A stretch of DNA of 47,972 nucleotides from Candidatus Deferrimicrobium sp. (GTDB taxonomy: Archaea; Asgardarchaeota; Lokiarchaeia; Helarchaeales; HEL-GB-A): the NCBI GenBank assembly GCA_035531115.1, contig DATKTP010000150.1, forward strand, positions 1-47,972. Direction: 5' to 3'. Below are positions 2,465 to 46,851 of this stretch, one piece after another. How positions within the stretch are numbered: the stretch's first letter is position 1; every line of letters starts with the position of its first letter. The notes beneath the pieces were generated by a model that had not been told where the DNA came from, ran no database searches, and worked only from the letters and a program-made list of their open reading frames with translations. The translations under genes were made by a program, and so were the position numbers.

Positions 2465-3589
2465 TTATTCAATGTCTGTTGGTTGTTGTTTCCAATACCT
2501 GCCATATGCAATCCAATCTGGATATTTTTCAAATACTTCTTTCATAACTGGATTCTCAAAAAGGAAAATCCGTTTATATCGGAGATGCTTTTCAAGATCA
2601 TCTATATTCGTAATTTGATTGCATTCGAGATGAAAAACCGTTTTATTATCTGATAGATTTTGCACTGAACTGATCTGATTGTATCCAAGTAATACAAGAT
2701 TGAGTTGAACCGGGAAATCATTTCCAATAATTTCAGTAATGTGATTATTATCAAGTTCTAGATACTTTAATGCTGTTAATGAGTAAATACCATCTATTTT
2801 ATTAACACTATTAAATTTTAAACGCAAAATTTTCAGATTTTTTAAAGATGATAACCCCTCAATTAATTTTATTTGGTTGTTATTTAAATTCAGTTCATTG
2901 AGTTCAGTGAGATTTTCTAACCCTTCGATTTTTCCAATTCGATTTCCCTCCAGATTTAGCTCAGAAAGATTTCTGAGTGAATCTAACCCTTCAATTCGTG
3001 AAATATGATTGTACTCCAAGTTTAAAGAACGAAGTGCTGTTAAAGTATTTAAACCGCGGATCTCTGCAGGATCGTTATGAGAAAGATTCAATTTGATAAG
3101 TTTATTTAGATTCTCTAAGCCCTTTACCATTTGTATATTGTTATAGGAGAGATCTAGTTCCTCGAGATTTATTAATGCATCTAACTTTTTTATTTCAAAT
3201 AACCGATTATGAGAAAGATTTAGATGCTTAAGAGAGGTCAAATTATCTAAACCATTTATCTCTCCTATCTTATTATTCATACAAAATAAACTCTCGATTC
3301 TAGGAAAATGGTCTAAACCCTTTAAATCTTCAATTTGATTATTATTTAAAGATAAAGAACGTAGTTTAGGTAATTTTTCTAATAATATTAACCCTTCTAA
3401 ATTCCTAATCTTGTTATTATTCAGTTCCAAATACTTGAGCTTTCCCAGAGATTCCAGTCCTTCGACTTCTGAAAGATCTGAAAGTCTCTGATTGGATAAG
3501 TCTAATAATCCCCCCCTAGTTAGCCCAATCTTTTCACCATGTAGAACAATAGAGTCCGACATATTGGTATTTCCAATAAAGGTATTCAT
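2465..3589 (-). CDS. leucine-rich repeat protein with 22-residue SDS22/internalin-type repeats
   Basis: About 13 consecutive repeats fit the pattern LxxLxxLxLxxNxIxxIEGLExL (for example LKYLELNNNKIRNLEGL, LRSLNLEYNHISRIEGLDSL). Confidence 0.85.
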   Translation of the reverse strand: MNTFIGNTNMSDSIVLHGEKIGLTRGGLLDLSNQRLSDLSEVEGLESLGKLKYLELNNNKIRNLEGLILLEKLPKLRSLSLNNNQIEDLKGLDHFPRIESLFCMNNKIGEINGLDNLTSLKHLNLSHNRLFEIKKLDALINLEELDLSYNNIQMVKGLENLNKLIKLNLSHNDPAEIRGLNTLTALRSLNLEYNHISRIEGLDSLRNLSELNLEGNRIGKIEGLENLTELNELNLNNNQIKLIEGLSSLKNLKILRLKFNSVNKIDGIYSLTALKYLELDNNHITEIIGNDFPVQLNLVLLGYNQISSVQNLSDNKTVFHLECNQITNIDDLEKHLRYKRIFLFENPVMKEVFEKYPDWIAYGRYWKQQPTDIE

Positions 3590-3620
3590 GATTACCTTTT
3601 TAAAAAAAGGAATATTAATT

Positions 3621-4808
3621 TTATTTATCTTTATTTAAAAAGAGAATAAATAGTTTTTTCTCCTCAAAACGTGCGCTTCCTACTTTTAGATTTTTAGCAA
3701 TAGCAGGAAGAAGGAGAATTCGTTTATAATCTCCGATTTCAATAATTAATTCTTCCCCTTTTTTTCGAATTTTTGTTTCTCCTTTTTTTACGAAGGGTAA
3801 ATTAATGGTCATAATGATATTTCCTTCGAGATCAGTATCAATAGTAAAAGGCTTTTCATGGGAATAAACTTCCGTCGGATCACCTTTTTCACCATACATT
3901 TCCGTTGCTACTTGTTCGAGTAATTTTAATCCAATAACTTCTTCTTCTTTCAAATGAATTTTCAGTAATTTTAAAGGATAAAAAGTGGTTTCTATTCGTT
4001 GCATATATTTTTTTTGCGTTTCTTTCCATTTTTTAAAATATGGATCATTAATCGTTTCTGGTATAACTTTATTAATACAAAGTGCGTCAATATTTAGACC
4101 ATAAAGATTCATAAATGTTAGAGCTCGTTCACTTTCTAGAATTGGCATTTTTTCAAGGTTAGTTACAACGCGCACCGTCGTTTTTGTGGTTTCAACAAGA
4201 AGATTTCGCATATCATTCACCCGTTCCATCAAGCCTTGCATCTGTCCAAAAAAAAGTTCATCAGGAATTGGGGTTCGAACGACTTGTTCTGTTGTTTCTC
4301 GCAAGGGTTCAAAAATACGCATAATCCCCCGTTGAATTCGTAATAAATATTTCCCAAACAAACTAAAGACTTGAGGAAAACTGAGCAATCGAAATGTATG
4401 CCCTGTCGGAGCTGTATCCAGGACGATAACTTCGAATTTATTTATATATTCACTTATTTTTAAAATGGAAAATAATTCATCTAAACCTGGAAGTGCAACC
4501 ATTTCACTAGCAATAGCAGCTTCAATCCCTCTAGATTGAAAAAGACGTGTTAGAAAATTCCTAACAACCCCATAATTTTGCTCTATTTCCCGCTCTAATT
4601 CGATTTGAAGCCCATACAGATTTTTTCGAATTTCTCTCGGTTCTTCTACTCCTAATTCTACATCTAGACAGTCAGAGAGTGCCTGAACCGGATCACTTGA
4701 TAAAACAAGTGTCTTTTTTCCAATTTTAGCACATTGTAGGGCTGTGGCTGCTGCACAGGTCGTCTTACCAACTCCACCTTTCCCTGTAAAAATAAGTGTT
4801 CGTGCCAT
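3621..4808 (-). CDS. ArsA/Get3-family ATPase with C-terminal HSP20-like domain
   Basis: It has the deviant Walker A GKGGVGKTT, SSDPVQALSD, and the switch II signature DTAPTGHTFRLL. The C-terminal ~85 aa (IIMTINLPFVKKGETKIRKKGEELIIEIGDYKRILLLP) look like an alpha-crystallin/HSP20 beta-sandwich. Confidence 0.85.
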   Translation of the reverse strand: MARTLIFTGKGGVGKTTCAAATALQCAKIGKKTLVLSSDPVQALSDCLDVELGVEEPREIRKNLYGLQIELEREIEQNYGVVRNFLTRLFQSRGIEAAIASEMVALPGLDELFSILKISEYINKFEVIVLDTAPTGHTFRLLSFPQVFSLFGKYLLRIQRGIMRIFEPLRETTEQVVRTPIPDELFFGQMQGLMERVNDMRNLLVETTKTTVRVVTNLEKMPILESERALTFMNLYGLNIDALCINKVIPETINDPYFKKWKETQKKYMQRIETTFYPLKLLKIHLKEEEVIGLKLLEQVATEMYGEKGDPTEVYSHEKPFTIDTDLEGNIIMTINLPFVKKGETKIRKKGEELIIEIGDYKRILLLPAIAKNLKVGSARFEEKKLFILFLNKDK

Positions 4809-10672: not shown

Positions 10673-11800
10673 ATGAGCGATGAAGAACGACCTAATAAAG
10701 GAAAACAAGACAAAAAAGATGACTCCTTCTTTTCTGATGTGTTAGATGCCTTGGATAAACCCGTTTCAGATGAAGCCAGTTCTCCTCAAGCAGGTGTTTA
10801 TCAACCAGATCAAAGTAGTATTCCCGCACAACCTAGTGTTCCACAAAGCCTATTTCCCTACGCTCCTGACATGAATGATCCAAACGCCTATCCCGATTTC
10901 CAAGGTGCAAAATTCTATGTCGATACCCGCGATTATTTCAAAGCTATTAGTAGCCTCACTAATATTCTTCGGGTTCAGCACGCTACTACGGATAAAAATA
11001 TGGCATCTGAATTAGTCTTAGAATTGGCTAAAACTGACCCTTCAATTCTCGATCCATTACTCCCTTATCTGATTTTAGTAGAAGATTCCGCAGATCCCAT
11101 TATAAATATGAATATTAATAATAGCTTGCTTTATCTTCGCGTATCCTACAATAACGTCGTTACCCGTCTAAAAGAGATCGTTAAATCTTTCGTAGAGTCA
11201 TATTATACGCAGTTTAATACGACTTACATTCCCTTTATCGATATTCTTACCCGAATAGGCACGAGTATAGAAGTCATTATCAAAATCTTAGAATTAATGA
11301 CGAAAAACAGAGAACTCACTGGGAAATTAGATTTTGCCGGTCAAGTATTCGCGTATGAACCACCTGGTGCCTTATACCTATGTCCACATTGCGGGATCGA
11401 ATTGAAAAAAGATGCAAATTTCTGTCCCAATTGCTTAAAAGAAGTCTTTAAATGTGCCATTTGTTTCCGCTTTATCAAGCCTGATGAGCTTGTCCGGTGT
11501 CCAAAATGCTCCATCCCCGCCCACGAACAACATTTTCTGGAATGGGTCAAGAAAACGGGGGCTTGTCCGAGCTGCCAAAACAAGCTCTACGAGCAGGAAG
11601 TCGCGAAAGTCCAGTGCATTGTGTGCAGTCTGGAAATTAAAAGTAGCGAGAAGGTAGAAAATCTAACTAAATGTCCAGCCTGCGGCGGAATCGCCCACAA
11701 AGATCATTTCCTAGATTACATTCGCATGTCGAATCACTGTCCCGAATGTAAGAAGCCAATCGATTACAAGGAATTAAAGAAGTTACTGAAGAAAAAATGA
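10673..11800 (+). CDS. protein with an acidic/PQ-rich N-terminus, a helical middle, one zinc ribbon and two tandem cross-brace (PHD/RING-H2-like) zinc fingers
   Basis: The zinc ribbon is CPHC-x12-CPNC. The first finger is C261-x2-C-x11-C-x2-C-x4-H-x2-H-x10-C-x2-C301. The second, C315-x2-C-x15-C-x2-C-x4-H-x2-H-x10-C-x2-C359, has the same pattern. H-x2-HF-x2-W resembles the RING-H2 core. Confidence 0.55.
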   Translation: MSDEERPNKGKQDKKDDSFFSDVLDALDKPVSDEASSPQAGVYQPDQSSIPAQPSVPQSLFPYAPDMNDPNAYPDFQGAKFYVDTRDYFKAISSLTNILRVQHATTDKNMASELVLELAKTDPSILDPLLPYLILVEDSADPIINMNINNSLLYLRVSYNNVVTRLKEIVKSFVESYYTQFNTTYIPFIDILTRIGTSIEVIIKILELMTKNRELTGKLDFAGQVFAYEPPGALYLCPHCGIELKKDANFCPNCLKEVFKCAICFRFIKPDELVRCPKCSIPAHEQHFLEWVKKTGACPSCQNKLYEQEVAKVQCIVCSLEIKSSEKVENLTKCPACGGIAHKDHFLDYIRMSNHCPECKKPIDYKELKKLLKKK

Positions 11801-17967: not shown

Positions 17968-18624
17968 ATGGAAGATAGAGAGACTATCATTCAGCGGGTC
18001 ATCAATTTCCTCTATGAGGCATTGGACCGCTTTAAAGATACGATGAGTGATTTGAACCAGAATGTTTCCTCGCTAATGGACAGCTTAAAGAAAGCTGAAG
18101 GTGATCTTTCTGGCACAGGTATCGCTAGATCCTCGACGGACAGGTCTGCTGTTCTTTCAACTATTTCTGGTCGAGGCGTACCCACTACCTCTTCATCGCG
18201 TGAAAAATTAATTGCTTTACTTTCAGGAAGACCAATGACTCCTCCCACAGCTGCTCCCGCAGCAGCGGTTCCTAGACCTGCTATGCCTCCAGCAGCCGGG
18301 CCTCCACGGCCTCCAGCAGCCGGACCTCAAGCCGCAGGACCTCCACGGCCTCCAGCAGCCGGGCCTCCAGCCGCAGGGATTCCACCACGCCCACCAGCTG
18401 CCGCTGTGCCATCGGCGGGTCCTCCTCGCGTTCCAGTAGCTGGCCCTCCTCTGGCGGCTCCCCCCACAATGGCACCTGCCGCTCGTCCTCCTACCCCTAT
18501 GCCCACCGCAGCGCCAGCCAGTGCAGCCGCTGGTGCAGGAAGCGCACCAACAATTTCAGGCTTACGTGATGAGATGTTGAAGGAATTGAAACGTTTAAAA
18601 AGTATAATGAAAGGCGAAAAATAA
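17968..18624 (+). CDS. coiled-coil protein with long Pro/Ala-rich repeat region
   Basis: GTGAGG lies upstream of the ATG. The N-terminus is helical, aa ~90-195 contain PPAAGPPRPPAAGPQAAGPPRPPAAGPPAAGIPPRPPAA, and the C-terminus is an amphipathic helix LRDEMLKELKRLKSIMKG. Confidence 0.6.
   Translation: MEDRETIIQRVINFLYEALDRFKDTMSDLNQNVSSLMDSLKKAEGDLSGTGIARSSTDRSAVLSTISGRGVPTTSSSREKLIALLSGRPMTPPTAAPAAAVPRPAMPPAAGPPRPPAAGPQAAGPPRPPAAGPPAAGIPPRPPAAAVPSAGPPRVPVAGPPLAAPPTMAPAARPPTPMPTAAPASAAAGAGSAPTISGLRDEMLKELKRLKSIMKGEK
18285..18372 (+). repeat. in-frame tandem DNA repeat, period 39 nt, inside the Pro/Ala-rich coding region
   Basis: cctccacggcctccagcagccgg occurs at 18301 and again at 18340. 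A partial copy gcctccagcagccggg lies at 18285. Confidence 0.7.
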
Positions 18625-19370: not shown

Positions 19371-20027
19371 ATGACGCAAGAGACAAAACTCGTTGGATCT
19401 AGGAACAATATTATTATTATTGCTGCAGGTGCAATTTTTGGTGCCTTATCTATGGCTCTCTCTCCATTTACTGGTTCAATTCCAAAAATATCGGTAGGTT
19501 GGGGTATGTCAATTTTAGATCCTATTAGTATTATTTGGTTAATTTGCTTTCTGATTTTTGGCTGGAAATCAGGCTTGCTTGCTTCTGGAATAGGCACTGT
19601 AGGAATTGCTCTATTATCTCCAGAACCAGTAGCATGGTTAGGCGCCTTAATGAAATTCTCTGCTACAATTTCATTTATAATTGTTCCTACAATATTAGCA
19701 AAATTACGTGATCTCAAAGCGATTGAATTTAAAAGGTTAAAGATTTATGGATCTTCAAGTGGATTAGCAATCCTTCTTCGATGCGCATTAATGATTCCCA
19801 TGAATATTTTTTTCGCAATGGGGATATATGCTGCTTTTTTTGGTATGTCTCTCCAAGAAGTTATAAATGTTATGACAATCTGGCTTGCTCCGATTGGATT
19901 AACTGGTTGGGGCGCTGTAATTCTAACAATTGCTGTAATGAACATTTGGCAAAGTCTCTGGGATATTGCTGTGCCGTATCTTGTCGTATTTCCGACTAAA
20001 ATTGCTGAAAGTTACGCAACCTGGTAA
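19371..20027 (+). CDS. integral membrane protein (about 5-6 TM), ECF S-component-like
   Basis: Hydrophobic segments run throughout (IIIIAAGAIFGALSMAL, ISIIWLICFLIFGW, GAVILTIAVMNIW). Its size and layout resemble vitamin-transporter S components. It is convergent with the riboflavin reductase gene. Confidence 0.5.
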   Translation: MTQETKLVGSRNNIIIIAAGAIFGALSMALSPFTGSIPKISVGWGMSILDPISIIWLICFLIFGWKSGLLASGIGTVGIALLSPEPVAWLGALMKFSATISFIIVPTILAKLRDLKAIEFKRLKIYGSSSGLAILLRCALMIPMNIFFAMGIYAAFFGMSLQEVINVMTIWLAPIGLTGWGAVILTIAVMNIWQSLWDIAVPYLVVFPTKIAESYATW

Positions 20028-20058: not shown

Positions 20059-20739
20059 TTAAAATAATGCTTTGTAGTATAAGACGACATTATAGCCTAT
20101 TTGATCAATATAATCAAGTTCTAAATGAAATCCTTCGCAAACTGATTCAAATCCTAAGCCATCGACTAAAGTTGTAGCGCTTTTCCCCCCTACAAGTACT
20201 GGCGCAATTGCCACTCTCACTTCATCAATAAATTTATTTTCTATCATGCTAAAATTTAAAGTACCTCCTCCTTCAAGTAATACCTTTTTTATATTCATTT
20301 TTACAAGAAATTCCATGACTTTTTTTAAATCAACCTGGTTTTTTTCTCCAGTTTCAAGGATTTGTGCTCCTTTATTTTTTAATTGTTGGATTTTTGATTT
20401 TGGTGCTTTATTGGTAACTGCAATTAAAACTGGATAAATTGAAAGATCCATATTGAAAAGATTCGCATTTGGGGGTGTATGTGCTATACTATCTATAATA
20501 ACACGCAAAAACTTATTCGGAGTATAGTTTTTAATATAAAGTTTTGGATCATCTTTTAAGATTGTGTTAATTCCAACCATAATTGCATCCATTTCACTAC
20601 GTAATTTATGAACACGCTTCCAATCTGCCTCTGATGAAAATTCAGCGTCGCCAGAAATAGTGGCTATTTTGCCATCGAGGCTCATTGCTGCATTTAAAAT
20701 GACATATGGTCGATTCTTAAGGTTCTTCTCACTGGGCAT
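20059..20739 (-). CDS. 2,5-diamino-6-ribosylamino-4(3H)-pyrimidinone 5'-phosphate reductase (RibD C-terminal domain type; archaeal ArfC-like)
   Basis: 226 aa. It has RPYVILNAAMSLDGKIAT, a DAIMVGINTILKDDPKL motif and LLEGGGTLNFS, typical of the RibD_C reductase family. Confidence 0.8.
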   Translation of the reverse strand: MPSEKNLKNRPYVILNAAMSLDGKIATISGDAEFSSEADWKRVHKLRSEMDAIMVGINTILKDDPKLYIKNYTPNKFLRVIIDSIAHTPPNANLFNMDLSIYPVLIAVTNKAPKSKIQQLKNKGAQILETGEKNQVDLKKVMEFLVKMNIKKVLLEGGGTLNFSMIENKFIDEVRVAIAPVLVGGKSATTLVDGLGFESVCEGFHLELDYIDQIGYNVVLYYKALF

Positions 20740-21898
20740 AGATTAATGTTCCTCCAATAAAAACACCCTTTACATTTAGTGGATTTGCTCTCAGGATGAG
20801 TGCATCGTATAAAGATGTTAATGGACAAAGATTTGGGGCATTTAAATCAATCAAAAAGAAATTGGCCATTTTCCCTACATTTAAAGATCCAATATCCTGT
20901 TCTAATTTTAAGGCTCTAGCTGGATTTATGGTAACCATTTTCAAAATTTCAAAGGAAGAGATACAATTAATTCCAAATTTCTCTCTGGCAGATTTAAATA
21001 GGAATTCCATTTCTCGAAAGAGATTTAAATTATTGATCATAACATTATCACTTCCTAGACATGTCAAAATCTTATATTTATTAAGGAGCAATAGCGGGGG
21101 ATATCCCACGCCTAGATGTGAATTAGATCGTGGGCAAATTACTACAGCTCTATGTTGTTCAGCAATTTCTTTAATGTCTTCTTCATCTGCCCATGTAATA
21201 TGAATTAAGATATCTGCATCAAGTACTTCTAATGCTCGTCGGATATCTGATTTTTCAAATTTTTTCAAAGCAAAGGACCGCTCTTCTTTGGTTTCAGAAG
21301 CATGGGTTAATATTAATTTTTGAGAGTTCTTACAATTATTTTTGAGATAATTCAAATCAATATCCGAATATATATTAGACGAACTAAGCCCAAGAGCTTC
21401 ACATTTTTTAAGCACTTTTGGAAATGATTCTAAATCTGGAAAGGGTCGCCCACATATTATTGCATTCATTGGGTGATTTTCAAGAACTTGCTTGAGAGAA
21501 TCTATTCCAGTCTCTCCAGATTCACGAAAATCCACAAATGTCGTAATTCCACAAGAAATCATTTCTCGGATGGCAAAAATTAATCCTTTTTTTAAATCCT
21601 CATCCGAAATTTCACTCAATAATCGATGCTTCAACCCATATGGGGGTTCCACCAACTCCTGAATTGATAGATTTAATCCTTGATCCTTCGCAAAGCTATC
21701 CCCAATATGTGTATGTGCATTGATAAATCCTGGCACCACTGCGCACTTCGGATAGTGTAATTGAGCCTCCCTATTCGATTGGTCAACTTGGATATCTTGA
21801 ATTAAATTATTTCTAATTGTTAATATGACGTTCTTTTTTAATTCCAGATTGTCTCCTAGTAATCCGAACCTACAAAAAATTGTTTTTATTTCTGGCAT
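20729..21898 (-). CDS. metal-dependent amidohydrolase-superfamily deaminase/chlorohydrolase-like protein
   Basis: It has VVPGFINAHTHIGDS (HxH metal motif), a later LTHASE, and LGSDN (metal Asp). Its stop overlaps the start of the downstream reductase gene by 11 nt (ATGCCCAGTGA). Confidence 0.8.
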   Translation of the reverse strand: MPEIKTIFCRFGLLGDNLELKKNVILTIRNNLIQDIQVDQSNREAQLHYPKCAVVPGFINAHTHIGDSFAKDQGLNLSIQELVEPPYGLKHRLLSEISDEDLKKGLIFAIREMISCGITTFVDFRESGETGIDSLKQVLENHPMNAIICGRPFPDLESFPKVLKKCEALGLSSSNIYSDIDLNYLKNNCKNSQKLILTHASETKEERSFALKKFEKSDIRRALEVLDADILIHITWADEEDIKEIAEQHRAVVICPRSNSHLGVGYPPLLLLNKYKILTCLGSDNVMINNLNLFREMEFLFKSAREKFGINCISSFEILKMVTINPARALKLEQDIGSLNVGKMANFFLIDLNAPNLCPLTSLYDALILRANPLNVKGVFIGGTLIYAQ

Positions 21899-21935
21899 TT
21901 AAGAAAAATCCAAATATTTTATCCTTAATAATCAT

Positions 21936-23141
21936 TTGATGCACCCTATAATAGAAAAGATTTTACCTCAATTGAATCCCCCAACAGATGAAATAATTCA
22001 AAAAATTTTGGACAATCAACCAGTAAAATCGAAAGAGGTTTATTCATTATATGAAATTCCTTTTAACCACTATCCTTTCCTTTTCCTGATCGCGAATTAT
22101 TTAAGGCAAGAAGCAAATCAAAATGTTATCAGTTACTCTAAAAATGTCTTTATCGATATTACTCACTTATGTCGAAATAATTGCTCATATTGTGGATTCC
22201 GGCAAGAGCCGATCGAACTGAATTCAGTTATATTACGACCCGAAAAAATTATAGAGATCGCTCGAAAAGCAAAGGATTTAGGATGTAAAGAAGCCCTGCT
22301 TACAATGGGCGAAAAACCAGAACTCAAATATGATATATATAGGACTATTTTACGTTCCCTAGGGAATTATTCCACCACTATTGAATATTTGCGAGACGTA
22401 TGTGAAAAAATATTTAATGAAACGGGTCTTTTACCTCATAGTAATCCTGGTATTATGGAACGAGATGAGTTGAGCGAATTAAAAGAAGTTAATGCAAGTT
22501 TAGGGTTAATGCTTGAAAATGTGAGTGGGCGATTACTATCGAAAGGAGCTCCTCATGAACTTAGTCCTGGAAAAGCGCCAAAATTAAGATTAAACACAAT
22601 AAAACTCGCTGGAGAATTAAAAATTCCCTTTACGACAGGTATTTTAGTCGGAATTGGGGAATCATATCAAGAGCAGATTGATTCGCTTCTTGAAATAAAG
22701 AAATTAAATGACAAATTTGGTCATATCCAAGAAATAATTATTCAGAATTTTCTCCCTAAGAAGAATACCCCTATGGAACAGCATAGCCCGCCTTCAATAA
22801 TTGAAATGATGAAACTTGTCTGCCTTGCGCGAATCATTTTTAATGGCAAAATGAATATTCAAGTGCCCCCTAATTTGAATCCAAATAGTTTGGAATTATT
22901 ATTAATGAGTGGAACTAATGATTGGGGTGGAATTTCTCCACTCACACAAGATTACGTCAATCCCGAAAGAAAATGGCCCTCCATTCAACACCTAATGGAA
23001 ATAACTCATCAAACTGGCTTTATTATAAAAGAACGTCTTCCTATTTATCCTGAATTTGTAAAAAAAGATACATTTATATCACTAAAATTTAAGGATCACA
23101 TCAAATCTTTAACGGATGAAACAGGTTTTGTTAAACCATGA
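21936..23141 (+). CDS. cofG: FO (7,8-didemethyl-8-hydroxy-5-deazariboflavin) synthase subunit CofG, radical SAM
   Basis: NVFIDITHLCRNNCSYCGF carries the CxxxCxxC motif in the CofG context. The likely ATG is at 21939. Its stop overlaps the cofH start by 4 nt. Confidence 0.85.
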   Translation: MMHPIIEKILPQLNPPTDEIIQKILDNQPVKSKEVYSLYEIPFNHYPFLFLIANYLRQEANQNVISYSKNVFIDITHLCRNNCSYCGFRQEPIELNSVILRPEKIIEIARKAKDLGCKEALLTMGEKPELKYDIYRTILRSLGNYSTTIEYLRDVCEKIFNETGLLPHSNPGIMERDELSELKEVNASLGLMLENVSGRLLSKGAPHELSPGKAPKLRLNTIKLAGELKIPFTTGILVGIGESYQEQIDSLLEIKKLNDKFGHIQEIIIQNFLPKKNTPMEQHSPPSIIEMMKLVCLARIIFNGKMNIQVPPNLNPNSLELLLMSGTNDWGGISPLTQDYVNPERKWPSIQHLMEITHQTGFIIKERLPIYPEFVKKDTFISLKFKDHIKSLTDETGFVKP

Positions 23142-24295
23142 AAAAACAAAGTGATACTATTCGAAATCTCGAAAAATTTCTCGATGCAATTGATCCAGAG
23201 ACGGCTTCCATCTTGAATAGATTCCTTGATGGAAAAAAGAACTTAAAGGGCACTGAAGCAATTGAATTATTCCATACAACTGGATTAGAATTTCAAGCAT
23301 TATTGTTTATTGCAGATTTTATTCAAAAGCAAGTCAATAAAGATGTTGTTACCTTTGTTATTAACCGAAATATTAACTTCACTAATATTTGCACAAGTAA
23401 TTGCCAATTCTGTTCATTTAGTGTCAAACCTTCTGCATCTGATGCTTTTTTCTTAGAGGATGCTGAGATTTTAAAAAGAGCCAAGGAAGCCGTAAAAATT
23501 GGTGCTACAGAGGTTTGTATTCAAGGGGGCTTAGCCCCGAATTTAAATATTTATTCATATTCTCATATCATTGAATTATTAAAACAAGAACTCCCTAATT
23601 TGCATATTCATGGGTTTTCGCCCATGGAAGTATACTATGGATCAAGGAATTCAGATATTTCTATTCAGGAGGGTTTACGGATTTTAAAAGAAGCAGGATT
23701 AGATAGTATGCCTGGAACTGCTGCAGAAATATTAGTGGATGAAATCAGGAAAAAAATCTGTCCAAATAAAATGGATGTAGCAAATTGGGTGAAGACAATA
23801 AAAACTGCACATAATTTGGGAATTCCAACGAGTTCAACTATTATGTATGGACATATCGATTCAATTGAAGATCGTGTCAAACATCTAGAAATTCTTAGGG
23901 ACATTCAAAAAGAAACCCACGGATTTACGGAATTTGTTCCCCTATCATTCATGTATTGGAATACCAAAATATTTAAGGAGGGTATCGCAATGCCAGGATC
24001 TACTGGGATGGATGATTTAAAGATGTATGCTATTTCCCGATTGTTTTTTCATGGATTAATTAACAACATTCAAGTTTCATGGGTAAAGTTAGGTCCCAAA
24101 CTCGCTCAAATCGCCTTAAATGTAGGTTGCAATGATTTTGGTGGGACCCTTATGGATGAAAATATTTCGAAATCGGCAGGTGCCTCTTTTGGAGAATATT
24201 TACCCCCTAGCGAATTCATCCACCTAATAAAGGACGCGGGAAGAATTCCAGCCCAGCGCGATACGGTCTATAAAATTCTCAAAAATTTCACTTGA
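23138..24295 (+). CDS. cofH: FO synthase subunit CofH, radical SAM
   Basis: VINRNINFTNICTSNCQFCSF carries the CofH/MqnE-type CxxxCxxC context. 385 aa. It has an ATGA overlap with cofG. Confidence 0.85.
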   Translation: MKKQSDTIRNLEKFLDAIDPETASILNRFLDGKKNLKGTEAIELFHTTGLEFQALLFIADFIQKQVNKDVVTFVINRNINFTNICTSNCQFCSFSVKPSASDAFFLEDAEILKRAKEAVKIGATEVCIQGGLAPNLNIYSYSHIIELLKQELPNLHIHGFSPMEVYYGSRNSDISIQEGLRILKEAGLDSMPGTAAEILVDEIRKKICPNKMDVANWVKTIKTAHNLGIPTSSTIMYGHIDSIEDRVKHLEILRDIQKETHGFTEFVPLSFMYWNTKIFKEGIAMPGSTGMDDLKMYAISRLFFHGLINNIQVSWVKLGPKLAQIALNVGCNDFGGTLMDENISKSAGASFGEYLPPSEFIHLIKDAGRIPAQRDTVYKILKNFT

Positions 24296-24350: not shown

Positions 24351-25562
24351 TTATTCTGTCAGTCGCTTTAATTTAGTATGAATAACATTTTTGGCGTCTT
24401 CCCATTTTTTCAGTTCATTTTGTATACGAGGATGTTGAATGCCTTTAGTGTTTGCATTTAGCCATGTAATAAAATCCTTATCATAACTTTCGATTGACTT
24501 TTGAATTTCCAGCGCTCGTGATGAAATTAATTCCATTAGATCCCCTAGCATACTCATATAATAATTAATAGATTCTTCAATATTCTTCTCCATTTCGTTA
24601 ATAATCATCAAAATTTGCTGATCATCGACTTTCGATGGAATAGGTTTTGCTTTTTCTTCAGCTGGGAAGATCTGTGTCTTTAGATTATCGACTGTTTCGA
24701 TAAAATACTGAATTTGATCATCTCCATATTCGTCTGAAATCGCCACAATCATATTGTATATTTCGGTTAATATGGGAATAAAGCCATCTTTTATTTCAAA
24801 AAGAGATTGAAAGACTAACGGTTCAACTCCCTCTAATAAACCTGCATGGCAGGTTAAAACTCCCTTTCCTTCATTAGTAAATACGGCTGAAAAAACGGGC
24901 GCTCCAAGAGCTGCATTTTCTCCTTTTTCTTTAGCTACTGCGTCTAAACTTAATAATGTACCGCCGAACTCTTCCGAACCAACATTCATGGTTGGACTCA
25001 CACTGAATGCAAGGGGTAATCCCAGTTCATTTGTAACACAATTTGCTAGAAATAAGGGGTTTTTTATTGATAAGATTTCTTGTAACGCATCTTCTCCACC
25101 GGGTTGAAACGAATGTGAAGGAACAGGCTTCCCCGCATACATCGTTGCTATGATTTTATGAACACTTTGTATTACTGAGAAGTCGTATCCATCTAAGCCT
25201 AATTCTGAAACCCAAATATTTACTAAATCATTTAAACACGAATCAATCAATTTTGAATCAAGAATCCAATTAGTTTTATGTTCTACTACGAGAACAAGGT
25301 AACCCAACCCAATATCAATCCCTATTATAGATTTATCAGGAAATATAGAAATATGAATTACACTTTTCCCTAATGAAAGAAATTCACAGACATCTTCTGC
25401 TGCTCTAAAAATTGAAGATTCTAAAGCCCCGATGCCTTCGATCGGCTTAATCCTAAGTACTTTACTAATCACCAAACCCACTTTATCACAAATTAGCACT
25501 AGTTTTATACTCTGAGAACTTCTCAAAATCTTGGCAAGGATCATTTCAGGAGTTGCGGACAT
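24351..25562 (-). CDS. protein with two Roadblock/LC7-like domains and a C-terminal coiled coil
   Basis: The first domain spans aa 10-100 (SIKLVLICDKVGLVISK...AAEDVCEFLSLGKSVIHISIFPDKSIIGIDIGLGYLVLVV). The second spans aa ~170-265 (FLANCVTNELGLPLAF...VFTNEGKGVLTCHAG). Both fit the Roadblock pattern. The tail is helical. Confidence 0.45.
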   Translation of the reverse strand: MSATPEMILAKILRSSQSIKLVLICDKVGLVISKVLRIKPIEGIGALESSIFRAAEDVCEFLSLGKSVIHISIFPDKSIIGIDIGLGYLVLVVEHKTNWILDSKLIDSCLNDLVNIWVSELGLDGYDFSVIQSVHKIIATMYAGKPVPSHSFQPGGEDALQEILSIKNPLFLANCVTNELGLPLAFSVSPTMNVGSEEFGGTLLSLDAVAKEKGENAALGAPVFSAVFTNEGKGVLTCHAGLLEGVEPLVFQSLFEIKDGFIPILTEIYNMIVAISDEYGDDQIQYFIETVDNLKTQIFPAEEKAKPIPSKVDDQQILMIINEMEKNIEESINYYMSMLGDLMELISSRALEIQKSIESYDKDFITWLNANTKGIQHPRIQNELKKWEDAKNVIHTKLKRLTE

Positions 25563-25962: not shown

Positions 25963-26649
25963 ATGGATAAAATCGAAGGAGAATTCATCTGTAGGAAATG
26001 CCAAAGTCCCCTAAGCATATATAGAATTTTAGTTAGCAAAAAAGGGTATGCATTACTCGAAGTTGCATGTCAAAATAAACATTCCGGAAAGCGGAAATTC
26101 GAAATGCAACAGCAAAATGAGTGGATGCCCACAACAATTAAGCATTTATATATTTGTCCAAGATGCAGCGCAGATTTAACTGATTTGCGTCAAAAGACAG
26201 ATGGAGATTTAACTGTTCTTCTTTTAAATTGCCCGACCCATGGAAAAATTAAAAAAGTCATCTCAACTTCTTTCTTCTATGCTATGGACGCTTTAAGAAA
26301 ACAATTAACTGCAAGACCCGCCTATCCTGCTGGCTATCCAGCTGCATATCCTCCCGCAGCGCCTTATCCTAGTACCTATCCACCACAACCGTATCCCGCT
26401 CAAGCCCCACCACCCACAGGATTTCCACAACCCCCACCTGGACAATATCCTCCTACCTCGTCTCCCCCGCCTGCTACGGTTTCCCCTCCCCAATTCGAAG
26501 TTGCACCCCCTATTCCCCCCTCAACGCCACCTGCTAGTGTCGCTTCTCCCGAACGAACAACTGGCGGTCCAGATCTCTGTCCGGTCTGCGGTGAGGAAAT
26601 TACTCCCGGGGCAATGTTCTGCACTAGTTGTGGATCGGAACTTAAGTAA
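25963..26649 (+). CDS. duplicated N-terminal zinc-ribbon, Tyr/Pro-rich low-complexity linker, C-terminal zinc-ribbon protein
   Basis: The two N-terminal units are FICRKCQSPL-x22-CQNKHSGKRK and YICPRCSADL-x17-CPTHGKIKK. The linker reads PAYPAGYPAAYPPAAPYPSTYPPQPYP...PPPGQYPP. The C-terminal ribbon is CPVCGEEITPGAMFCTSCG. Confidence 0.6.
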   Translation: MDKIEGEFICRKCQSPLSIYRILVSKKGYALLEVACQNKHSGKRKFEMQQQNEWMPTTIKHLYICPRCSADLTDLRQKTDGDLTVLLLNCPTHGKIKKVISTSFFYAMDALRKQLTARPAYPAGYPAAYPPAAPYPSTYPPQPYPAQAPPPTGFPQPPPGQYPPTSSPPPATVSPPQFEVAPPIPPSTPPASVASPERTTGGPDLCPVCGEEITPGAMFCTSCGSELK

Positions 26650-29037: not shown

Positions 29038-29793
29038 TTATAATTTAACTCCGCATATAGAACATTTTGGATGTCTTTTCACAGTTATTATATCAAAAGT
29101 CATGTTTTCTCCATCAACAATTAAAAGACGACCGATCAACGGTTTTCCAATTCCTGTAATTAATTTAATTGCCTCTGTAACTTCAATTGATGCGATAATT
29201 CCTACTGCTGCCCCAACCACAGGAATTTTTTGCATTTCAGAAGGAATTTTGGGATAAAAACACTGAAGGCAAGGACTCTTTCCAGGTACAATTGTTAGCA
29301 CACGCCCTTCAAATGCGTAACATGCGGCATGCACATATGGAATGTTTAATTCTATGCACGTTTTATTCAAAAGAAAGCGTGTTTCAAAATTATCAAGACA
29401 ATCCAAAACAACCGTACAGTTTTTAATGAGGTCTTTTATGTTATCTTGCGTAATACGAGTTGAAATGGGTTCAATGTTTATTTCAGGATTTAAAGCGTGC
29501 AGCTTTTCATAGGCTGAATCTACTTTCTTTTTTGCAATATCCGGTGTAAAATGGATGATTTGGCGGTTTAGGTTACTAATATCAACGAAATCATTATCTA
29601 CAATTTTTATTTTTCCAATACCTGCAGCTGTTGCATATAGTGAAGTAATGCTTCCTAATCCCCCAACTCCTATGATTGCTACAGTTGCTTCTTTTAACTT
29701 CTTCTGTACTCCTTCACCCCAATTTTTAATGAGAAGTTGGCGAGCATACCTTTCCCTTTCGGCATCTGTTAAATTCACCCTATTCAATTTCAA
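29038..29793 (-). CDS. ThiF/MoeB/HesA-family E1-like adenylyltransferase
   Basis: RYARQLLI...ATVAIIGVGGLGS is the Rossmann GxGxxG region. It also has NLNRQ and the C-terminal zinc pairs CLQC and CSIC. Confidence 0.85.
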   Translation of the reverse strand: MKLNRVNLTDAERERYARQLLIKNWGEGVQKKLKEATVAIIGVGGLGSITSLYATAAGIGKIKIVDNDFVDISNLNRQIIHFTPDIAKKKVDSAYEKLHALNPEINIEPISTRITQDNIKDLIKNCTVVLDCLDNFETRFLLNKTCIELNIPYVHAACYAFEGRVLTIVPGKSPCLQCFYPKIPSEMQKIPVVGAAVGIIASIEVTEAIKLITGIGKPLIGRLLIVDGENMTFDIITVKRHPKCSICGVKL

Positions 29794-34561: not shown

Positions 34562-35941
34562 TTATTTTAAAGGTCTCTGAAGAATTTTGCCAAGACCTTT
34601 TGGTACCATTATTTCCCCATCTTTCATAACAATTTTTCCATTTACTATGGTCATTGTAGGAATCCCTTTAACTTCTCGTCCATTAAAAGGTGAGAATTTT
34701 GCTTTTGAATGAAAATCTTCTGCTTTAATTACTTTAGATTTTTTTAAATCAATAACTGTTAAATCCGCATCAAATCCAACAGCTATTCTCCCTTTACTAG
34801 ATAAATTTAGAAATTTAGCTGGATTTTCAGAGATGATCTGAATTAATCGAGTTAAAGTAATTTTTTCTTCATGCATAGCTGTAAACATTAATGGTAATAC
34901 TGTTTCAAAACCTGGAATTCCATTTGCAGCCTGTGAAAAATTACAATCTTTCTCAGACTGCATATGAGGCGCATGATCGGTTGCTAATATATCGATTGTT
35001 CCATCATTCAGTCCCTGCCATAAGCCAGCTTGATGATGGGGTGCCCGTAAAGGCGGAAGCATTTTCGCAAGGGCACCATATTTCAGTAAATCATTTGTAT
35101 TTAAAAATAAATGATGAGGCGTTACTTCTGCAGTGATATTTTTTTCCTTTTCTTTCATTTCTCGAATAATATCCATCCCTGCAACAGTACTGACATGGCA
35201 AATATGAGTTTTTGATCCAATTTGTGCAGTTAGTTTTAAAATAAATTCAATTGCCTTTTTTTCAACCACTTCAGAATGACTTTGTAGATATATTTCCTGA
35301 GGCGATAATTGTACCCCACGTATTTGTGTCTGAATTTCTTCAATATCCTTTTTTCTCTCTGCATGAATTAAAATTGGACAATTACTTTGTTTGATTTTTT
35401 GAAAAAGTTTTCGAAGTAATTCCAAATCATCGATATCAAATTCGCTTAATGAATGTGAAAGATATAATTTAAATCCAAATACCCCATGATCTGCCAAAGA
35501 AGTTATTTCTTCTAATATATTTGGAATGCCTGCATAAAATCCAGTATTGATTACTATTTTTTTTCTTGCTATATTCATTTTTTGTTCCAATAAATCAGAA
35601 GATATTGTAGAAGGATTAGTATTTGGCATATCCACAACGGTGGTAATACCCCCATTTGCTGCGGCACATGTGCCCGAATAAAAATCTTCTTTGTCTCTAT
35701 AATTTAAATCTCTTAAGTGTGCATGAATGTCAATTGCTCCAGGAATTACCAATTGCCCTTCTATATTAATAGTGTGATCACCCGGAGGTAATTTAGAATC
35801 TTTCCCGATCCCGGTAATTTTCCCCTTATCAATAATAATACCTCCCTCAATAATTTGGTTATTAAAAAAGATTTTTGCGTTTTTAATTATGAGATCCACA
35901 GTGGTTGAATTTCTTGCTATCATTGGCCGGTTATCTTCCAA
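34562..35941 (-). CDS. dihydroorotase-like cyclic amidohydrolase (dihydroorotase / allantoinase / dihydropyrimidinase family)
   Basis: It has PGAIDIHAHLRD (HxH), FKLYLSH (carbamylated Lys context), ILIHAE, HICHVS and TDHAPH motifs. 459 aa. Confidence 0.7.
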   Translation of the reverse strand: MEDNRPMIARNSTTVDLIIKNAKIFFNNQIIEGGIIIDKGKITGIGKDSKLPPGDHTINIEGQLVIPGAIDIHAHLRDLNYRDKEDFYSGTCAAANGGITTVVDMPNTNPSTISSDLLEQKMNIARKKIVINTGFYAGIPNILEEITSLADHGVFGFKLYLSHSLSEFDIDDLELLRKLFQKIKQSNCPILIHAERKKDIEEIQTQIRGVQLSPQEIYLQSHSEVVEKKAIEFILKLTAQIGSKTHICHVSTVAGMDIIREMKEKEKNITAEVTPHHLFLNTNDLLKYGALAKMLPPLRAPHHQAGLWQGLNDGTIDILATDHAPHMQSEKDCNFSQAANGIPGFETVLPLMFTAMHEEKITLTRLIQIISENPAKFLNLSSKGRIAVGFDADLTVIDLKKSKVIKAEDFHSKAKFSPFNGREVKGIPTMTIVNGKIVMKDGEIMVPKGLGKILQRPLK

Positions 35942-37482: not shown

Positions 37483-39495
37483 TTAGTCCTTAATTTCCCC
37501 CCTACCCCCGGGAAGAGCCCGTTGTATTTCGTCAAGAGGGATATTTCGAATCATTTCTTTATAAGATTCATTGCTACTTCCCTTTAATAATTGTGCTTTA
37601 ATGAGCTTGGCAAGTTCAGAACCTGATTTGTCTCCAAATGTGATTTCGATGGAGATTTGTGTATGTTTTTTTATTGCTTCGGGAGGTCCTGACATCACTA
37701 TTGCAAATTTTTCCTCAAATTTCACGCCTAACCTCAATTTGAGAGGTACATTTTTAAATGGATTTTTTGTTCCTCGAATAATAAAAGATCCTTTTTGCAG
37801 ATATTCACCAGATGGGGGAGTTTGAGACACTTGGTTTGCAAGAACATAATAAACATCTGCCTGACCATATTGAGACTTCCAAGCGCTAGAAAACGTAATC
37901 TCAAACTGGGCAGCCTCCCGTTGAGTTTGTTCTGGTACTTGTTTTCCCTCTGTCTTAACTACAACCACAGGCGCCCCATGAAATACTGCATGGAAAAAAA
38001 TATCTTCCTCCGCCATATATCTTTTTACAATCAGCTCATTCGTCTTTAAATCGCGCCCCCCTATCACAAGAAATCCATCTGATGAAATAAACCAATGAAA
38101 TTTTTCATACCAATGCTTCTTTCTCATTTCACGCAGTTTTGTCTCTTTTTTAGCAATAATCTCGGCTTCAAGTTCTATTTGATCCTTTTGTTTTAACATC
38201 CGTTGATATGCAGCTTTAGCGCCCTCTAATTTCGCTGCTGATTTCTTTGCTTTCGTATAAAAATTGTTTGCATTATCTGCAACGGATTTCCGAAAATCAA
38301 CAGGAAATTCTTCTCCTTCTATGTTTAAAAGAAGTATCGCATTTGTATAATCAATTTTTTTAACTAGATGTGCCGGTACAACATTTTTTTTCTTAGCTTC
38401 CCGGATGATTGTTTCAATTTCCTTCCATGATTTACCATTACTGCGTGCTTTTTTAATAGAAATTAGTAATTCTTCGATGCTCTGAAAGTTTTGATATAAA
38501 ATATCGCCCAATCGTCTGAAACGAACTGAACCTTGTTCTAATTGCTGAATCGCTACTTCTTGTTTCTTAAGAATTTTATCTGTTTTAGTTAAATCTGTTT
38601 TTTTATCTTTGAGCTCAATGGTTTTTATTTTAATTTCTTCATTCGCACTGAAAAATTCGTCTGCCGCTGTATTAAAATTATCAAAATTTTGTCTTTTTGC
38701 ATCTGAAAATTGAATAAGTTCGATCGGGGCTAAGATTTTATTTGCATCAATCTCATAAATACCTGGATTAAATTTATTAATATTAAAGGATGAAATAAAA
38801 TCCCTCATGATCTCAAAGATACCTTCTAAATTTTCGTCAGATAGAGATGTACATTGCATTTCCTTTTCGAGATGTACTCTAAAACATATTTCTTCTGCAT
38901 AAATTGGACTAATATTCAAATTCATTATAAGAGTCCTTATGAGATTTTGATCGGTGGACTGAAAAATCGCTTTCAAATCATTTAAGGTTAATTTATTAAT
39001 ATCCACTCCTCTTGAAGGCGCAAAGTTAAATTCCCGATTTGGAATGATGCGCCTATCACGCATTGTTCTATAACTCAATGCGATTATTACTTTTCCATTA
39101 GAATCTAAAAGAACTAGATTTCCCCTTTCAAAAAATTCTACGATCAATTTATTGTTACATTTCTGTATCTCGTCTTCTGTGCTAAGCCGTCCTACTTCGA
39201 TAATTATTACACGGTCAAATTCATGCTGCTCTATTCCCAAAACCCGCTGATTTCTTAGATATTTCCGTAAGGTCATGCAAAACTTGGAAGGTATCTTAGG
39301 TTTCTGACGCTCATATTTAGTTAAATGGACTCGTTTCGCGGGTTCAATTAATAATTCTACATTTCCTTCTTTTGTCCGGAATTTTATCGTAAAAAGTGAA
39401 TCTATTTGATATACATTGCTGATCCATTGCTTAGTAACTAACGATTTAAGCTCAGATACGATTGCTGCAATATCGAAAGACGACATTTCTGTCAA
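37483..39495 (-). CDS. NFACT-family protein (FbpA / Rqc2 / NEMF homolog), ribosome quality control
   Basis: 670 aa. It has an NFACT-N-like N-terminus, a central coiled coil and a DUF814/NFACT-R block (FHWFISSDGFLVIGGRDLKTNELIVKRY...FFHAVFHGAPVVVVK). Confidence 0.85.
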   Translation of the reverse strand: MTEMSSFDIAAIVSELKSLVTKQWISNVYQIDSLFTIKFRTKEGNVELLIEPAKRVHLTKYERQKPKIPSKFCMTLRKYLRNQRVLGIEQHEFDRVIIIEVGRLSTEDEIQKCNNKLIVEFFERGNLVLLDSNGKVIIALSYRTMRDRRIIPNREFNFAPSRGVDINKLTLNDLKAIFQSTDQNLIRTLIMNLNISPIYAEEICFRVHLEKEMQCTSLSDENLEGIFEIMRDFISSFNINKFNPGIYEIDANKILAPIELIQFSDAKRQNFDNFNTAADEFFSANEEIKIKTIELKDKKTDLTKTDKILKKQEVAIQQLEQGSVRFRRLGDILYQNFQSIEELLISIKKARSNGKSWKEIETIIREAKKKNVVPAHLVKKIDYTNAILLLNIEGEEFPVDFRKSVADNANNFYTKAKKSAAKLEGAKAAYQRMLKQKDQIELEAEIIAKKETKLREMRKKHWYEKFHWFISSDGFLVIGGRDLKTNELIVKRYMAEEDIFFHAVFHGAPVVVVKTEGKQVPEQTQREAAQFEITFSSAWKSQYGQADVYYVLANQVSQTPPSGEYLQKGSFIIRGTKNPFKNVPLKLRLGVKFEEKFAIVMSGPPEAIKKHTQISIEITFGDKSGSELAKLIKAQLLKGSSNESYKEMIRNIPLDEIQRALPGGRGEIKD

Positions 39496-39739: not shown

Positions 39740-40609
39740 GTGGAATTTAAGGATAAAATTTATTATTCAAAGATTTTATTAGCAGGAATCTCAAGTATTG
39801 TTTGTAATCTTTTAACTATACTCGGTTTTTTATTCCATTTTGGTCATGCTCAGGCATTTGGTGTTGCCTTTGGATGGGGGATTTTGGTTATTTATTGTTT
39901 ACTCCTTAATTGGCTCCTTAGTAAAAGGCCAGATAGCGAGAAAATCTTTTTAGATATAGGTGGTAAGAGAAAAATTGTTATGGAAGGTCTTGGAGGATAC
40001 GTCACTTTTTGGGTCAGCACGTGGGCACTCTCCTATTCCTTTTTACATTATGTACTTTGGCCTGAATTATACACACCTGAAATATTAGGACCGCCCTTCT
40101 TTGCAAATGCCCCCTATTTCATTACCACTCTTCTAATTCTTGGAATCTCGTTTGCGTTGTCCTCAACAAGCAGTCTTTTATCCTTAAAAATTATGGATGT
40201 GAAACGCTTAAAACGATATTCAAAGGAGATTAAGAAATTTAAAGACCTTGAAAAACATGTTAAAGAAACAGGCGATAAAAAGGCTGCAATAAAATTAAAA
40301 CGGAAACAGAAGTACATCGAAAAGATAACAAGAACTACGATGTGGCAACGGATGAAACCTATGCTATTTTACATGGTGCCCTTTATGATTCTATTTTTTA
40401 TATTGAGTAGTACTTTCAAAAATACCACCTGTGCTATGTTCCCCTTTAATATCTCAGTAGTTCCACTTCTGAATATGTTCATTCGATCTCCTGGGGGTGT
40501 ATATTTACCTATGGGCTATCCCTTAGGTTATGTCAGTTGGTATATCGTCTCCTCTTTTGGATTTACAACAGTTATTCAAAAAGTGCTTGGGCTTCGCTTT
40601 GAGCAATGA
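39740..40609 (+). CDS. DUF106 / EMC3-TMCO1-Get1-like (Oxa1 superfamily) membrane protein with three extra N-terminal TM segments
   Basis: The core runs TM, then a basic coiled coil (KRLKRYSKEIKKFKDLEKHVKETGDKKAAIKLKRKQKYIEKITRTTMWQRMKPMLFYMVPFMILFF), then two further TMs. This is the DUF106 layout. About 120 additional hydrophobic N-terminal residues precede it. It uses a GTG start. Confidence 0.55.
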   Translation: MEFKDKIYYSKILLAGISSIVCNLLTILGFLFHFGHAQAFGVAFGWGILVIYCLLLNWLLSKRPDSEKIFLDIGGKRKIVMEGLGGYVTFWVSTWALSYSFLHYVLWPELYTPEILGPPFFANAPYFITTLLILGISFALSSTSSLLSLKIMDVKRLKRYSKEIKKFKDLEKHVKETGDKKAAIKLKRKQKYIEKITRTTMWQRMKPMLFYMVPFMILFFILSSTFKNTTCAMFPFNISVVPLLNMFIRSPGGVYLPMGYPLGYVSWYIVSSFGFTTVIQKVLGLRFEQ

Positions 40610-45921: not shown

Positions 45922-46851
45922 TTAATGCCTTTTGCTTATACGCTTCATTCTTTCTCCCCTTAAACCGCGGAGTTCCCTTAAACGTGCAGGAAGTGATTCT
46001 ATCCCACAACCAATAAGATCCAAGCGTTTGAGTGCTTGTAGATTTTCTAGGCTCGCAGGTAATTCAGTTAAGAATTTAGAACCGATAATTGATAATTTTT
46101 TGAGTGCTTTTAAATTTCCCATACTCTCAGGTAATCTAATAAATCCAAAACATCCAAAAAGGCTTAATTCTTGAAGTGCCTGTAAACTTCCTATGCTCTC
46201 AGGTATTGGCTCTCTTACATTGTAAATATATAATTTTTTTAATGACATTAAATTCCCATTTCTATTTAAAAACGAACAAAATGCGACCCCATCAACCCAT
46301 AATACTTGGAGTTTATGTAATTCAGTCACATTGGTAGGCAATTCTTTTATTTCGGAACAGTTTCTAATATGCAATTTTTTAAGAGAGCTTAAATTACCAA
46401 TAGTTTCGGGTAAATTAGTTAAGGACTTACAGCCCTTTAACGAAAGTATTTTAAGTTTTTGTAGATTCCCTATTTCTTTATCTATTTTTTTTAAGCAATG
46501 ACACTCATCTAAATATAAAAATTCTAGTGATTGAAAGGATTTCAGGACTTTAAATTCTTCAAATGTATTAAAGGGAAAAATAGCGTCTTTCCGTTTTAGA
46601 AACTCATAAAATGATTTCAAATCTTTCAAATCTTTAAATTTATTGAAGGTCTGTGGTAGATCAGGAGCTAGATCACTAATATCGGTATAATTGCTTAGAT
46701 ACAGCGCCTTAAGCCCCGTAAGTTCCTCCAGCCCCTCAATTTGATGCATATATGAAATTCTTTTTCGACGAAGATCTAATTTACCTCTATCATCCAGAAA
46801 GATTTTCTCCCCATGCACCATAACAAACTGCTTATGGGTATCGGGCGCCAC
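45922..46851 (-). CDS. leucine-rich repeat protein (Cys-containing, plant/ROCO-type LRRs)
   Basis: The repeats resemble IGNLQKLKILSLKGCKSLTNLPETIGNLSSLKKLHIRNCSEIKELP and SIGSLQALQELSLFGCFGFIRLPESMGNLKALKKLSI. It uses a GTG start at 46851 or an ATG at 46821. Confidence 0.8.
   Translation of the reverse strand: MAPDTHKQFVMVHGEKIFLDDRGKLDLRRKRISYMHQIEGLEELTGLKALYLSNYTDISDLAPDLPQTFNKFKDLKDLKSFYEFLKRKDAIFPFNTFEEFKVLKSFQSLEFLYLDECHCLKKIDKEIGNLQKLKILSLKGCKSLTNLPETIGNLSSLKKLHIRNCSEIKELPTNVTELHKLQVLWVDGVAFCSFLNRNGNLMSLKKLYIYNVREPIPESIGSLQALQELSLFGCFGFIRLPESMGNLKALKKLSIIGSKFLTELPASLENLQALKRLDLIGCGIESLPARLRELRGLRGERMKRISKRH

Follow-up and report, generated by a model that had tools for sequence, protein, structure and literature searches.

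A 47,972-nucleotide stretch of DNA from an Asgard archaeon (contig DATKTP010000150.1, positions 1 to 47,972 of the forward strand, placed by GTDB in the Helarchaeales; hereafter the window) carries an amidohydrolase gene, here called AH, that overlaps the gene of the archaeal riboflavin reductase ArfC and is transcribed divergently from cofG and cofH, the genes of 7,8-didemethyl-8-hydroxy-5-deazariboflavin (FO) synthesis. We propose that AH catalyzes the deamination in the archaeal pathway to the riboflavin/F420 precursor, an assignment to which we give, based on protein families and gene context, a probability of about 0.8. Within this pathway, no enzyme has been experimentally assigned to the deaminase and phosphatase steps, and the same holds for ArfB in some lineages such as the haloarchaea, for which no ArfB is assigned (Pfeiffer et al., 2021, PMC8305020).

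Archaea apparently lack orthologues of the RibD-type deaminase (Rodionova et al., 2017, PMC5397151). According to the account given in that study, Osterman, Overbeek and Rodionov had put forward an archaeal-specific candidate named "PyrD" in 2010 because its gene clusters and co-occurs with those of riboflavin synthesis, and it is still presented there as a prediction; the candidate is also part of the RbkR riboflavin regulons of 15 genomes (PMC5397151). The candidates have since been named as MJ0699 (Q58110) and HVO_2483, which share 34% identity and still need experimental confirmation (Pfeiffer et al., 2021, PMC8305020), and the role given to the MJ0699 family in SEED is "Pyrimidine deaminase archaeal predicted (EC 3.5.4.26)". 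We found no report on the enzymology or genetics of any member of this family in the literature that could be searched here. An earlier, sequence-only reading of the locus was therefore right in stating that the archaeal deaminase has not been firmly assigned. Its central suggestion, that AH is this missing enzyme, is supported by synteny, residue signature and family scores, yet it is a rediscovery of the 2010 prediction, already published and annotated in SEED, and not a new idea. By its sequence, AH is an additional, Asgard member of a known family of predicted deaminases.

Organization of the AH-arfC/cofGH locus

The locus consists of the following features (coordinates are those of the window):

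20059-20739, minus strand: arfC, 226 amino acids, archaeal 2,5-diamino-6-ribosylamino-4(3H)-pyrimidinone 5'-phosphate reductase of the RibD_C type
20729-21898, minus strand: AH, 389 amino acids, amidohydrolase of the subtype III deaminase type, orthologue of MJ0699/HVO_2483 by sequence
20729-20739, minus strand: overlap of the AH stop and the arfC start, 11 nucleotides (nt), ATGCCCAGTGA
21899-21935, no strand: divergent spacer between AH and cofG, AT-rich, containing the palindromic AAATATTT
21936-23141, plus strand: cofG, radical S-adenosylmethionine (SAM) FO synthase subunit, with the CxxxCxxC motif CRNNCSYC
23138-24295, plus strand: cofH, 5-amino-6-(D-ribitylamino)uracil--L-tyrosine 4-hydroxyphenyl transferase

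All four open reading frames (ORFs) match the coordinates given in the sequence-only reading, and the 11-nt overlap that it described is exact. The arfC product matches Pfam RibD_C (E 2.7e-49) and passes the model TIGR01508 rib_reduct_arch (209.5 bits, cutoff 186.45), while the products of cofG and cofH score 445 bits on TIGR03550 (cutoff 213) and 497 bits on TIGR03551 (cutoff 374), respectively; the coordinates of the latter two genes share 4 nt, and the CxxxCxxC motif is intact in both products. A GGAGG sequence is located 11 nt 5' of the arfC ATG, and AH and arfC are probably translationally coupled via their overlap and this upstream GGAGG. The spacer between AH and cofG, which may represent a shared bidirectional promoter region, measures 37 nt as had been claimed when counted to the TTG at 21936, but 40 nt when counted to the ATG at 21939, the likelier start of cofG because the Helarchaeota orthologue has 400 amino acids. 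The equivalent spacer in the Helarchaeota locus L085 is 91 nt long.

As the sequence-only reading had also noted, no domain of the RibD N-terminal type, i.e., of the cytidine deaminase (CDA) fold, is found in any of the window ORFs scanned. The second amidohydrolase of the window (34562-35941) is the dihydroorotase PyrC rather than a paralogue of the nucleoside deaminases DadD or MtaD, and is irrelevant to the deaminase question.

Assignment of AH to the MJ0699 family

The only Pfam domains detected in AH are Amidohydro_1 (E 4e-44) and Amidohydro_3, and it passes just one NCBIfam model, NF005552/PRK07213 "chlorohydrolase" (301.1 bits, cutoff 294), in line with the deaminase/chlorohydrolase-like type previously attributed to it. 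The core of this model is the Methanocaldococcus jannaschii protein MJ0699 (589 bits), and the orthologues of Nitrosopumilus, Methanosarcina and Haloferax score 327, 295 and 294.6 bits. The models of the characterized nucleoside and purine deaminases are all failed by AH: DadD (NF005557, 102 bits versus a cutoff of 522), MtaD (NF012037, 42 versus 779), SsnA (84 versus 444) and guanine deaminase (85 versus 375), the last of which is thus a distinct family. MJ0699 itself gives no match to the DadD model at E<=1e-20. The sequence-only reading had named a firm clustering with MtaD, DadD or SsnA as part of what would speak against its proposal; AH is instead far below the cutoffs of all three.

The homology to MJ0699 is full-length (36% identity over residues 13-350, E 4e-55), and the 34% identity between MJ0699 and the Haloferax orthologue equals the figure published for HVO_2483. 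MJ0699 was reached via Methanotorris igneus and identified by accession, as the corresponding cluster holds Q58110/WP_010870204.1 "Uncharacterized protein MJ0699"; an M. lauensis cluster that is sister to it bears the name "Pyrimidine deaminase archaeal predicted". In an exhaustive search, 197 representative clusters matched AH at E<=1e-30, versus 7354 at E<=1e-3, and the MJ0699 family therefore stands out from the wider superfamily. The nearest relatives of AH are Helarchaeota proteins (60-67% identity); those of other Asgard lineages and of Nitrososphaerales come next. One of the representatives, P0129, is a Loki-type Asgard sequence. AH thus resembles the MJ0699/HVO_2483 family in passing the cutoff of its model, in aligning over the full length, in carrying the same invariant residues and in its linkage to arfC and riboflavin genes, and these likenesses identify it as an orthologue of the published candidate. 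It differs in belonging to an Asgard (Helarchaeota-like) genome and in lying beside divergent cofGH genes instead of within a riboflavin operon.

Relatives of the family also occur in bacteria (L041, L042 and L070, from Trueperaceae, Actinomycetales and Ornatilinea). The two that were scanned, L042 and L070, reach 256-268 bits on NF005552 and so stay under its cutoff of 294, the nearly invariant lysine K71 is lost in some bacterial-type representatives (P0172, P0195, P0247), and there are no riboflavin genes within 10 kb of the three bacterial genes, which probably form a functionally distinct side branch. Extra matches to AH in L035 and L038, which match no NCBIfam model at E<=1e-30, were set aside, and so was one in L070, a generic MtaD/DadD-like paralogue.

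Conserved gene neighborhoods

The neighborhoods of AH relatives were scanned in one genome per GTDB species, using as the locus-search query a 12-sequence subset, the 41-sequence alignment A1 being too diverse. The scan confirmed 432 relatives, of which the best 80 loci were kept; these were searched using profiles derived from two sources, the window and a Nitrososphaerales operon. The synteny of this subfamily with arfC and cofGH, which the sequence-only reading had singled out for checking, turned out to be strong, with 41 AH-arfC pairs from two phyla. AH lies 5' of arfC in every cluster, and its stop overlaps the arfC start by 4-17 nt in 37 of the 41 junctions. The recurrence of this pairing across 41 independent loci of two phyla, mostly with overlapping genes, confirms that it is not due to chance.

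In approximately 35 Nitrososphaerota loci, the gene order is ribE-ribB-ribH-arfA-AH-arfC, with AH abutting both of its neighbors, and a Nitrososphaerales contig (L001) combines ribB-ribH-arfA-AH-arfC-arfB-ribE in one operon. The complete genome of Freyarchaeum deiterrae (CP147778.1) encodes a seven-gene operon, ribB-ribH-ribC-arfA-AH-arfC-arfB, of which AH is the sole gene without an assigned step. No radical-SAM gene is present in the Nitrososphaerota or Freyarchaeum riboflavin operons carrying AH, which would argue against a function of AH in clearing 5'-deoxyadenosine. Among the Asgard archaea, the Loki and Thor loci have the order AH-arfC-cofG-cofH, and the Helarchaeota locus L085 shows the same divergent layout as the window, gene for gene. 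In Methanosarcina, arfC lies ~1.5 kb from AH. The family is therefore found both in Asgard loci adjoining cofGH and in riboflavin operons free of radical-SAM genes. This wiring of AH-arfC to FO synthase in Helarchaeota, Loki and Thor, and to riboflavin genes in Nitrososphaerota and Freyarchaeum, would be expected for an enzyme producing the precursor common to both pathways.

The Loki and Thor clusters have a further neighbor, a GTP cyclohydrolase of the FolE2/MptA type (PF02649, GCHY-1), encoded divergently 5' of AH-arfC-cofG-cofH at the following positions:

L002, 6931-7890: FolE2/MptA-type GTP cyclohydrolase (PF02649)
L083, 4967-5941: FolE2/MptA-type GTP cyclohydrolase (PF02649)
L084, 2077-3051: FolE2/MptA-type GTP cyclohydrolase (PF02649)
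L088, 5535-6494: FolE2/MptA-type GTP cyclohydrolase (PF02649)

Pterin-binding/DUF4346 genes are also found near these clusters, and arfA is not part of them. The GTDB match most similar to AH (40% identity) is encoded in a Nitrososphaerota metagenome-assembled genome (L003, 9908-11005); unlike the other Nitrososphaerota loci, this one has no surrounding riboflavin genes, and another amidohydrolase paralogue is encoded at a distance of 8.7 kb.

Active site and predicted structure

The residues conserved in the family were determined from 94 orthologues belonging to six clades. The catalytic residues H62, H64, H199, E202, H233 and D284 are invariant, as are D67, K90, R125, E126, R151, R257, N285 and R370, with K71 nearly so. 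AH carries all of these family-invariant residues together with the full subtype III signature of COG0402, i.e., HxH after strand beta1 (H62/H64, the metal site already recognized in the sequence-only reading), HxxE after beta5, a histidine after beta6 and an aspartate after beta8 of a (beta/alpha)8 barrel. Within the amidohydrolase superfamily, the HxxE motif marks the deaminases of the COG0402 group.

The AlphaFold2 model of AH is of high confidence (predicted local distance difference test score 96.6, predicted template modeling score 0.95). The active sites of this superfamily are situated at the C-terminal ends of the barrel strands, and the catalytic residues of AH, as well as R125, R151 and R257, are found at or just past these ends in the model. 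The top Foldseek matches are methylthioadenosine (MTA)/adenosine deaminases (4gbd, 4dzh, 3lnp; template modeling (TM) scores 0.87-0.90, 20-23% identity), followed by isocytosine deaminase, AtzA, TM0936, TrzN and guanine deaminases, the COG0402 matches ranging from 0.82 to 0.90. Every near structural neighbor is a deaminase or a dechlorinase, and no solved structure of an MJ0699-family member is among the Foldseek matches.

With the MtaD, DadD and S-adenosylhomocysteine (SAH)-MTA deaminases, its closest structures (TM 0.86-0.90; comparison set TM0936 1p1m/2plm, PA3170 4gbd, Cv1032 4f0r and MJ1541), AH shares the fold and the HxH/HxxE/H/D residues. It differs from all of these in its low identity (20-23%), in its substrate loop and motifs, and in a context of riboflavin synthesis instead of SAM recycling. 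Profile alignments to the structures show that the MtaD-type HxHxaMSlfRG...W...WPaE is replaced by HTHIGDSxxKD...PPxGLKH in the MJ0699 family, DMYF by DFREGG, CPESN by CPRSN and GTDG by GTDN, and the insert between beta4 and beta5 is ~25 residues shorter in AH than in MtaD/DadD-type structures. These replacements seem to create an invariant, strongly basic pocket that is specific to the family, has no counterpart in MTA/SAH deaminases, and would fit a phosphorylated substrate.

Guanine, 8-oxoguanine and isocytosine deaminases, all of this superfamily, are known to cleave the 2-amino group off a 2-amino-4-oxopyrimidine. The reaction proposed for AH is of this kind, on the same scaffold (TM ~0.82-0.88 to these enzymes, including the isocytosine deaminase Vcz, 7ww2). 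In contrast to these enzymes, AH has an invariant aspartate at position +3 after HxH, and its proposed substrate carries a ribityl phosphate. The comparison with the RibD N-terminal domain and Rib2 is of another nature: the proposed reaction is that of these enzymes (EC 3.5.4.26 and the Rib2 reaction), above all that of fungal Rib2, which likewise deaminates the ribityl form after reduction, and the position beside a RibD_C-type reductase is shared as well. Yet RibD-N and Rib2 are zinc deaminases of the CDA fold, to which the (beta/alpha)8 amidohydrolase barrel of AH is unrelated.

Proposed reaction and alternative explanations

Based on these data, AH would be a subtype III (COG0402-type) deaminase within the amidohydrolase superfamily, with a single, predicted metal ion. 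ArfC would reduce 2,5-diamino-6-ribosylamino-4(3H)-pyrimidinone 5'-phosphate to its ribityl form, 2,5-diamino-6-ribitylamino-4(3H)-pyrimidinone 5'-phosphate, which is most likely the substrate of AH. AH would then hydrolytically strip the 2-amino group to yield 5-amino-6-ribitylamino-2,4(1H,3H)-pyrimidinedione 5'-phosphate, upon which a phosphatase would act, giving the dephosphorylated product common to CofG/CofH (FO/F420) and lumazine synthase (riboflavin). In the active site, the metal would be held by H62, H64, H199 and D284, the water activated by H233 and D284, and the departing ammonia protonated via E202, the glutamate of HxxE, as proton shuttle. The pyrimidinone is probably recognized by D67 and N285, whereas the basic residues K71, K90, R125, R151 and R257 probably serve to hold the 5'-phosphate of the ribityl chain.

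Several observations weigh against this proposal. No riboflavin neighbors of AH occur within 10 kb in Halobacteria, Methanoperedens, ANME-1 and Methanobacterium, so that the support from synteny comes mainly from Nitrososphaerota and Asgard archaea. The margin by which AH passes NF005552 is narrow (301 versus 294 bits), and the nearest solved structures are MTA/adenosine deaminases, even if their identity to AH is just 20-23%. The residue roles are drawn from strand position and analogy, and the search for an alternative deaminase covered the window ORFs scanned. To these can be added the silence of the searchable literature on the biochemistry of the family, as mentioned above.

The sequence-only reading had offered as its alternative a nucleoside deaminase of the DadD/MtaD type that would clear the 5'-deoxyadenosine released as a by-product when the radical-SAM enzymes CofG and CofH act. 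Such a role would suit the proximity of AH to cofG/cofH in the window and in the Loki, Thor and Helarchaeota loci, and the best matches of AH among both solved structures and PDB sequences are indeed MTA, SAH or adenosine deaminases. Yet neither AH nor MJ0699 belongs to this group by the family models, M. jannaschii already has another protein as its DadD, MJ1541, reportedly characterized by Miller and colleagues in the Journal of Bacteriology in 2014, the nucleoside loop W...WPaE and the CPESN motif are swapped for family-specific basic motifs, and the gene resides in radical-SAM-free riboflavin operons in the ~35 Nitrososphaerota loci and in Freyarchaeum. We therefore disfavor this alternative and regard it as highly improbable. 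We find it equally hard to believe that AH is a formamide hydrolase performing the ArfB step, instead of or besides deamination, where the cluster has no creatininase-type ArfB. Amidohydrolases are able to hydrolyze amides, the haloarchaeal ArfB is unassigned, no ArfB gene is found nearby in the Nitrosopumilales operon or in the window, and AH abuts arfA in Nitrosopumilales. However, AH shares an operon with a creatininase-family ArfB in L001 and L086, which speaks against a simple replacement, its fold is not that of the creatininases (it has no PF02633 domain), and both the invariant HxxE and the near structural neighbors, all deaminases or dechlorinases, point to deamination. In a variant of this idea, AH would carry out two hydrolytic steps, the deformylation of the ArfA product and the deamination of the ArfC product, in the clusters devoid of a creatininase-type ArfB, i.e., ribE-ribB-ribH-arfA-AH-arfC of Nitrosopumilales and AH-arfC-cofGH of Helarchaeota, Loki and Thor. 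By gene order, a single enzyme would then act both before and after the reductase, which we consider very unlikely.

A last alternative stays within the same pathway and departs from the proposed deaminase only in detail: AH could be a pyrimidine or pterin deaminase acting on another form of the substrate, such as the ribosyl compound preceding ArfC, the ribityl compound after loss of its phosphate, or a 2-aminopyrimidine arising from damage or as a side product. Deamination of the ribosyl intermediate before reduction is the bacterial order, the order of reactions is not fixed by that of the genes, with AH located 5' of arfC everywhere, and the FolE2/MptA-type cyclohydrolase and pterin-binding genes flanking the Loki/Thor clusters also count in favor of this alternative. 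Against this, the basic pocket favors a phosphorylated substrate, and the work on M. jannaschii extracts and MJ0671, as cited by Rodionova et al. (2017, PMC5397151), points to a reduction preceding deamination in archaea. We thus hold another substrate form to be unlikely, and a deaminase acting on the phosphorylated ribityl compound to be the best explanation for AH.

If this assignment is true, it would close the deaminase gap of the archaeal riboflavin/F420 pathway and reveal a non-orthologous displacement, in which an amidohydrolase barrel in Archaea takes the place of the CDA fold of Bacteria and fungi; thousands of genes now called "chlorohydrolase" or "amidohydrolase family protein" could be re-annotated. 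To the published prediction, the window contributes Asgard orthologues that keep the probable translational coupling to arfC, a link to FO synthase besides that to riboflavin genes, and a residue-level case against the DadD reading.

Other features of the window

The genes on both sides of the locus are shared with the Helarchaeota locus L085. A 218-amino acid multi-pass membrane protein without any Pfam match is encoded convergently with arfC (19371-20027, plus strand) and is 37% identical (E 9e-29) to the product of the L085 gene at the same position, which passes the Pfam cutoff for the substrate-specific component of energy-coupling factor (ECF) transporters (32.0 versus 30.7 bits). It is conceivable that this protein is the S-component of a vitamin transporter, possibly one for riboflavin. 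Directly downstream of cofH, a 403-amino acid protein (24351-25562, minus strand) without Pfam or NCBIfam match shares 75% identity with that encoded in L085 at 3309-4520, a level exceeding that of the amidohydrolase itself (~61%).

The window also encodes several eukaryote-like signature proteins of the kind that typifies Asgard archaea (42147-43409, 2465-3589, 45922-46851, 10673-11800, 39740-40609, 37483-39495 and 29038-29793), comprising Roadblock/LC7, two leucine-rich-repeat, RING-finger/zinc-ribbon, EMC3/TMCO1-like membrane, NFACT and ThiF/E1-like proteins. The ORF at 47008-47361 (minus strand, 117 amino acids) matches an N6/N4 DNA methylase domain only in its C-terminal part, positions 133-220 of 221, and possibly represents a fragment or a truncated version of a gene. 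Finally, long proline/alanine-rich low-complexity tracts are found in the products of two plus-strand genes (17968-18624 and 25963-26649, the second of which also encodes zinc ribbons), and these tracts coincide with peaks in GC content of ~0.40-0.42, the rest of the window being at ~33% GC.

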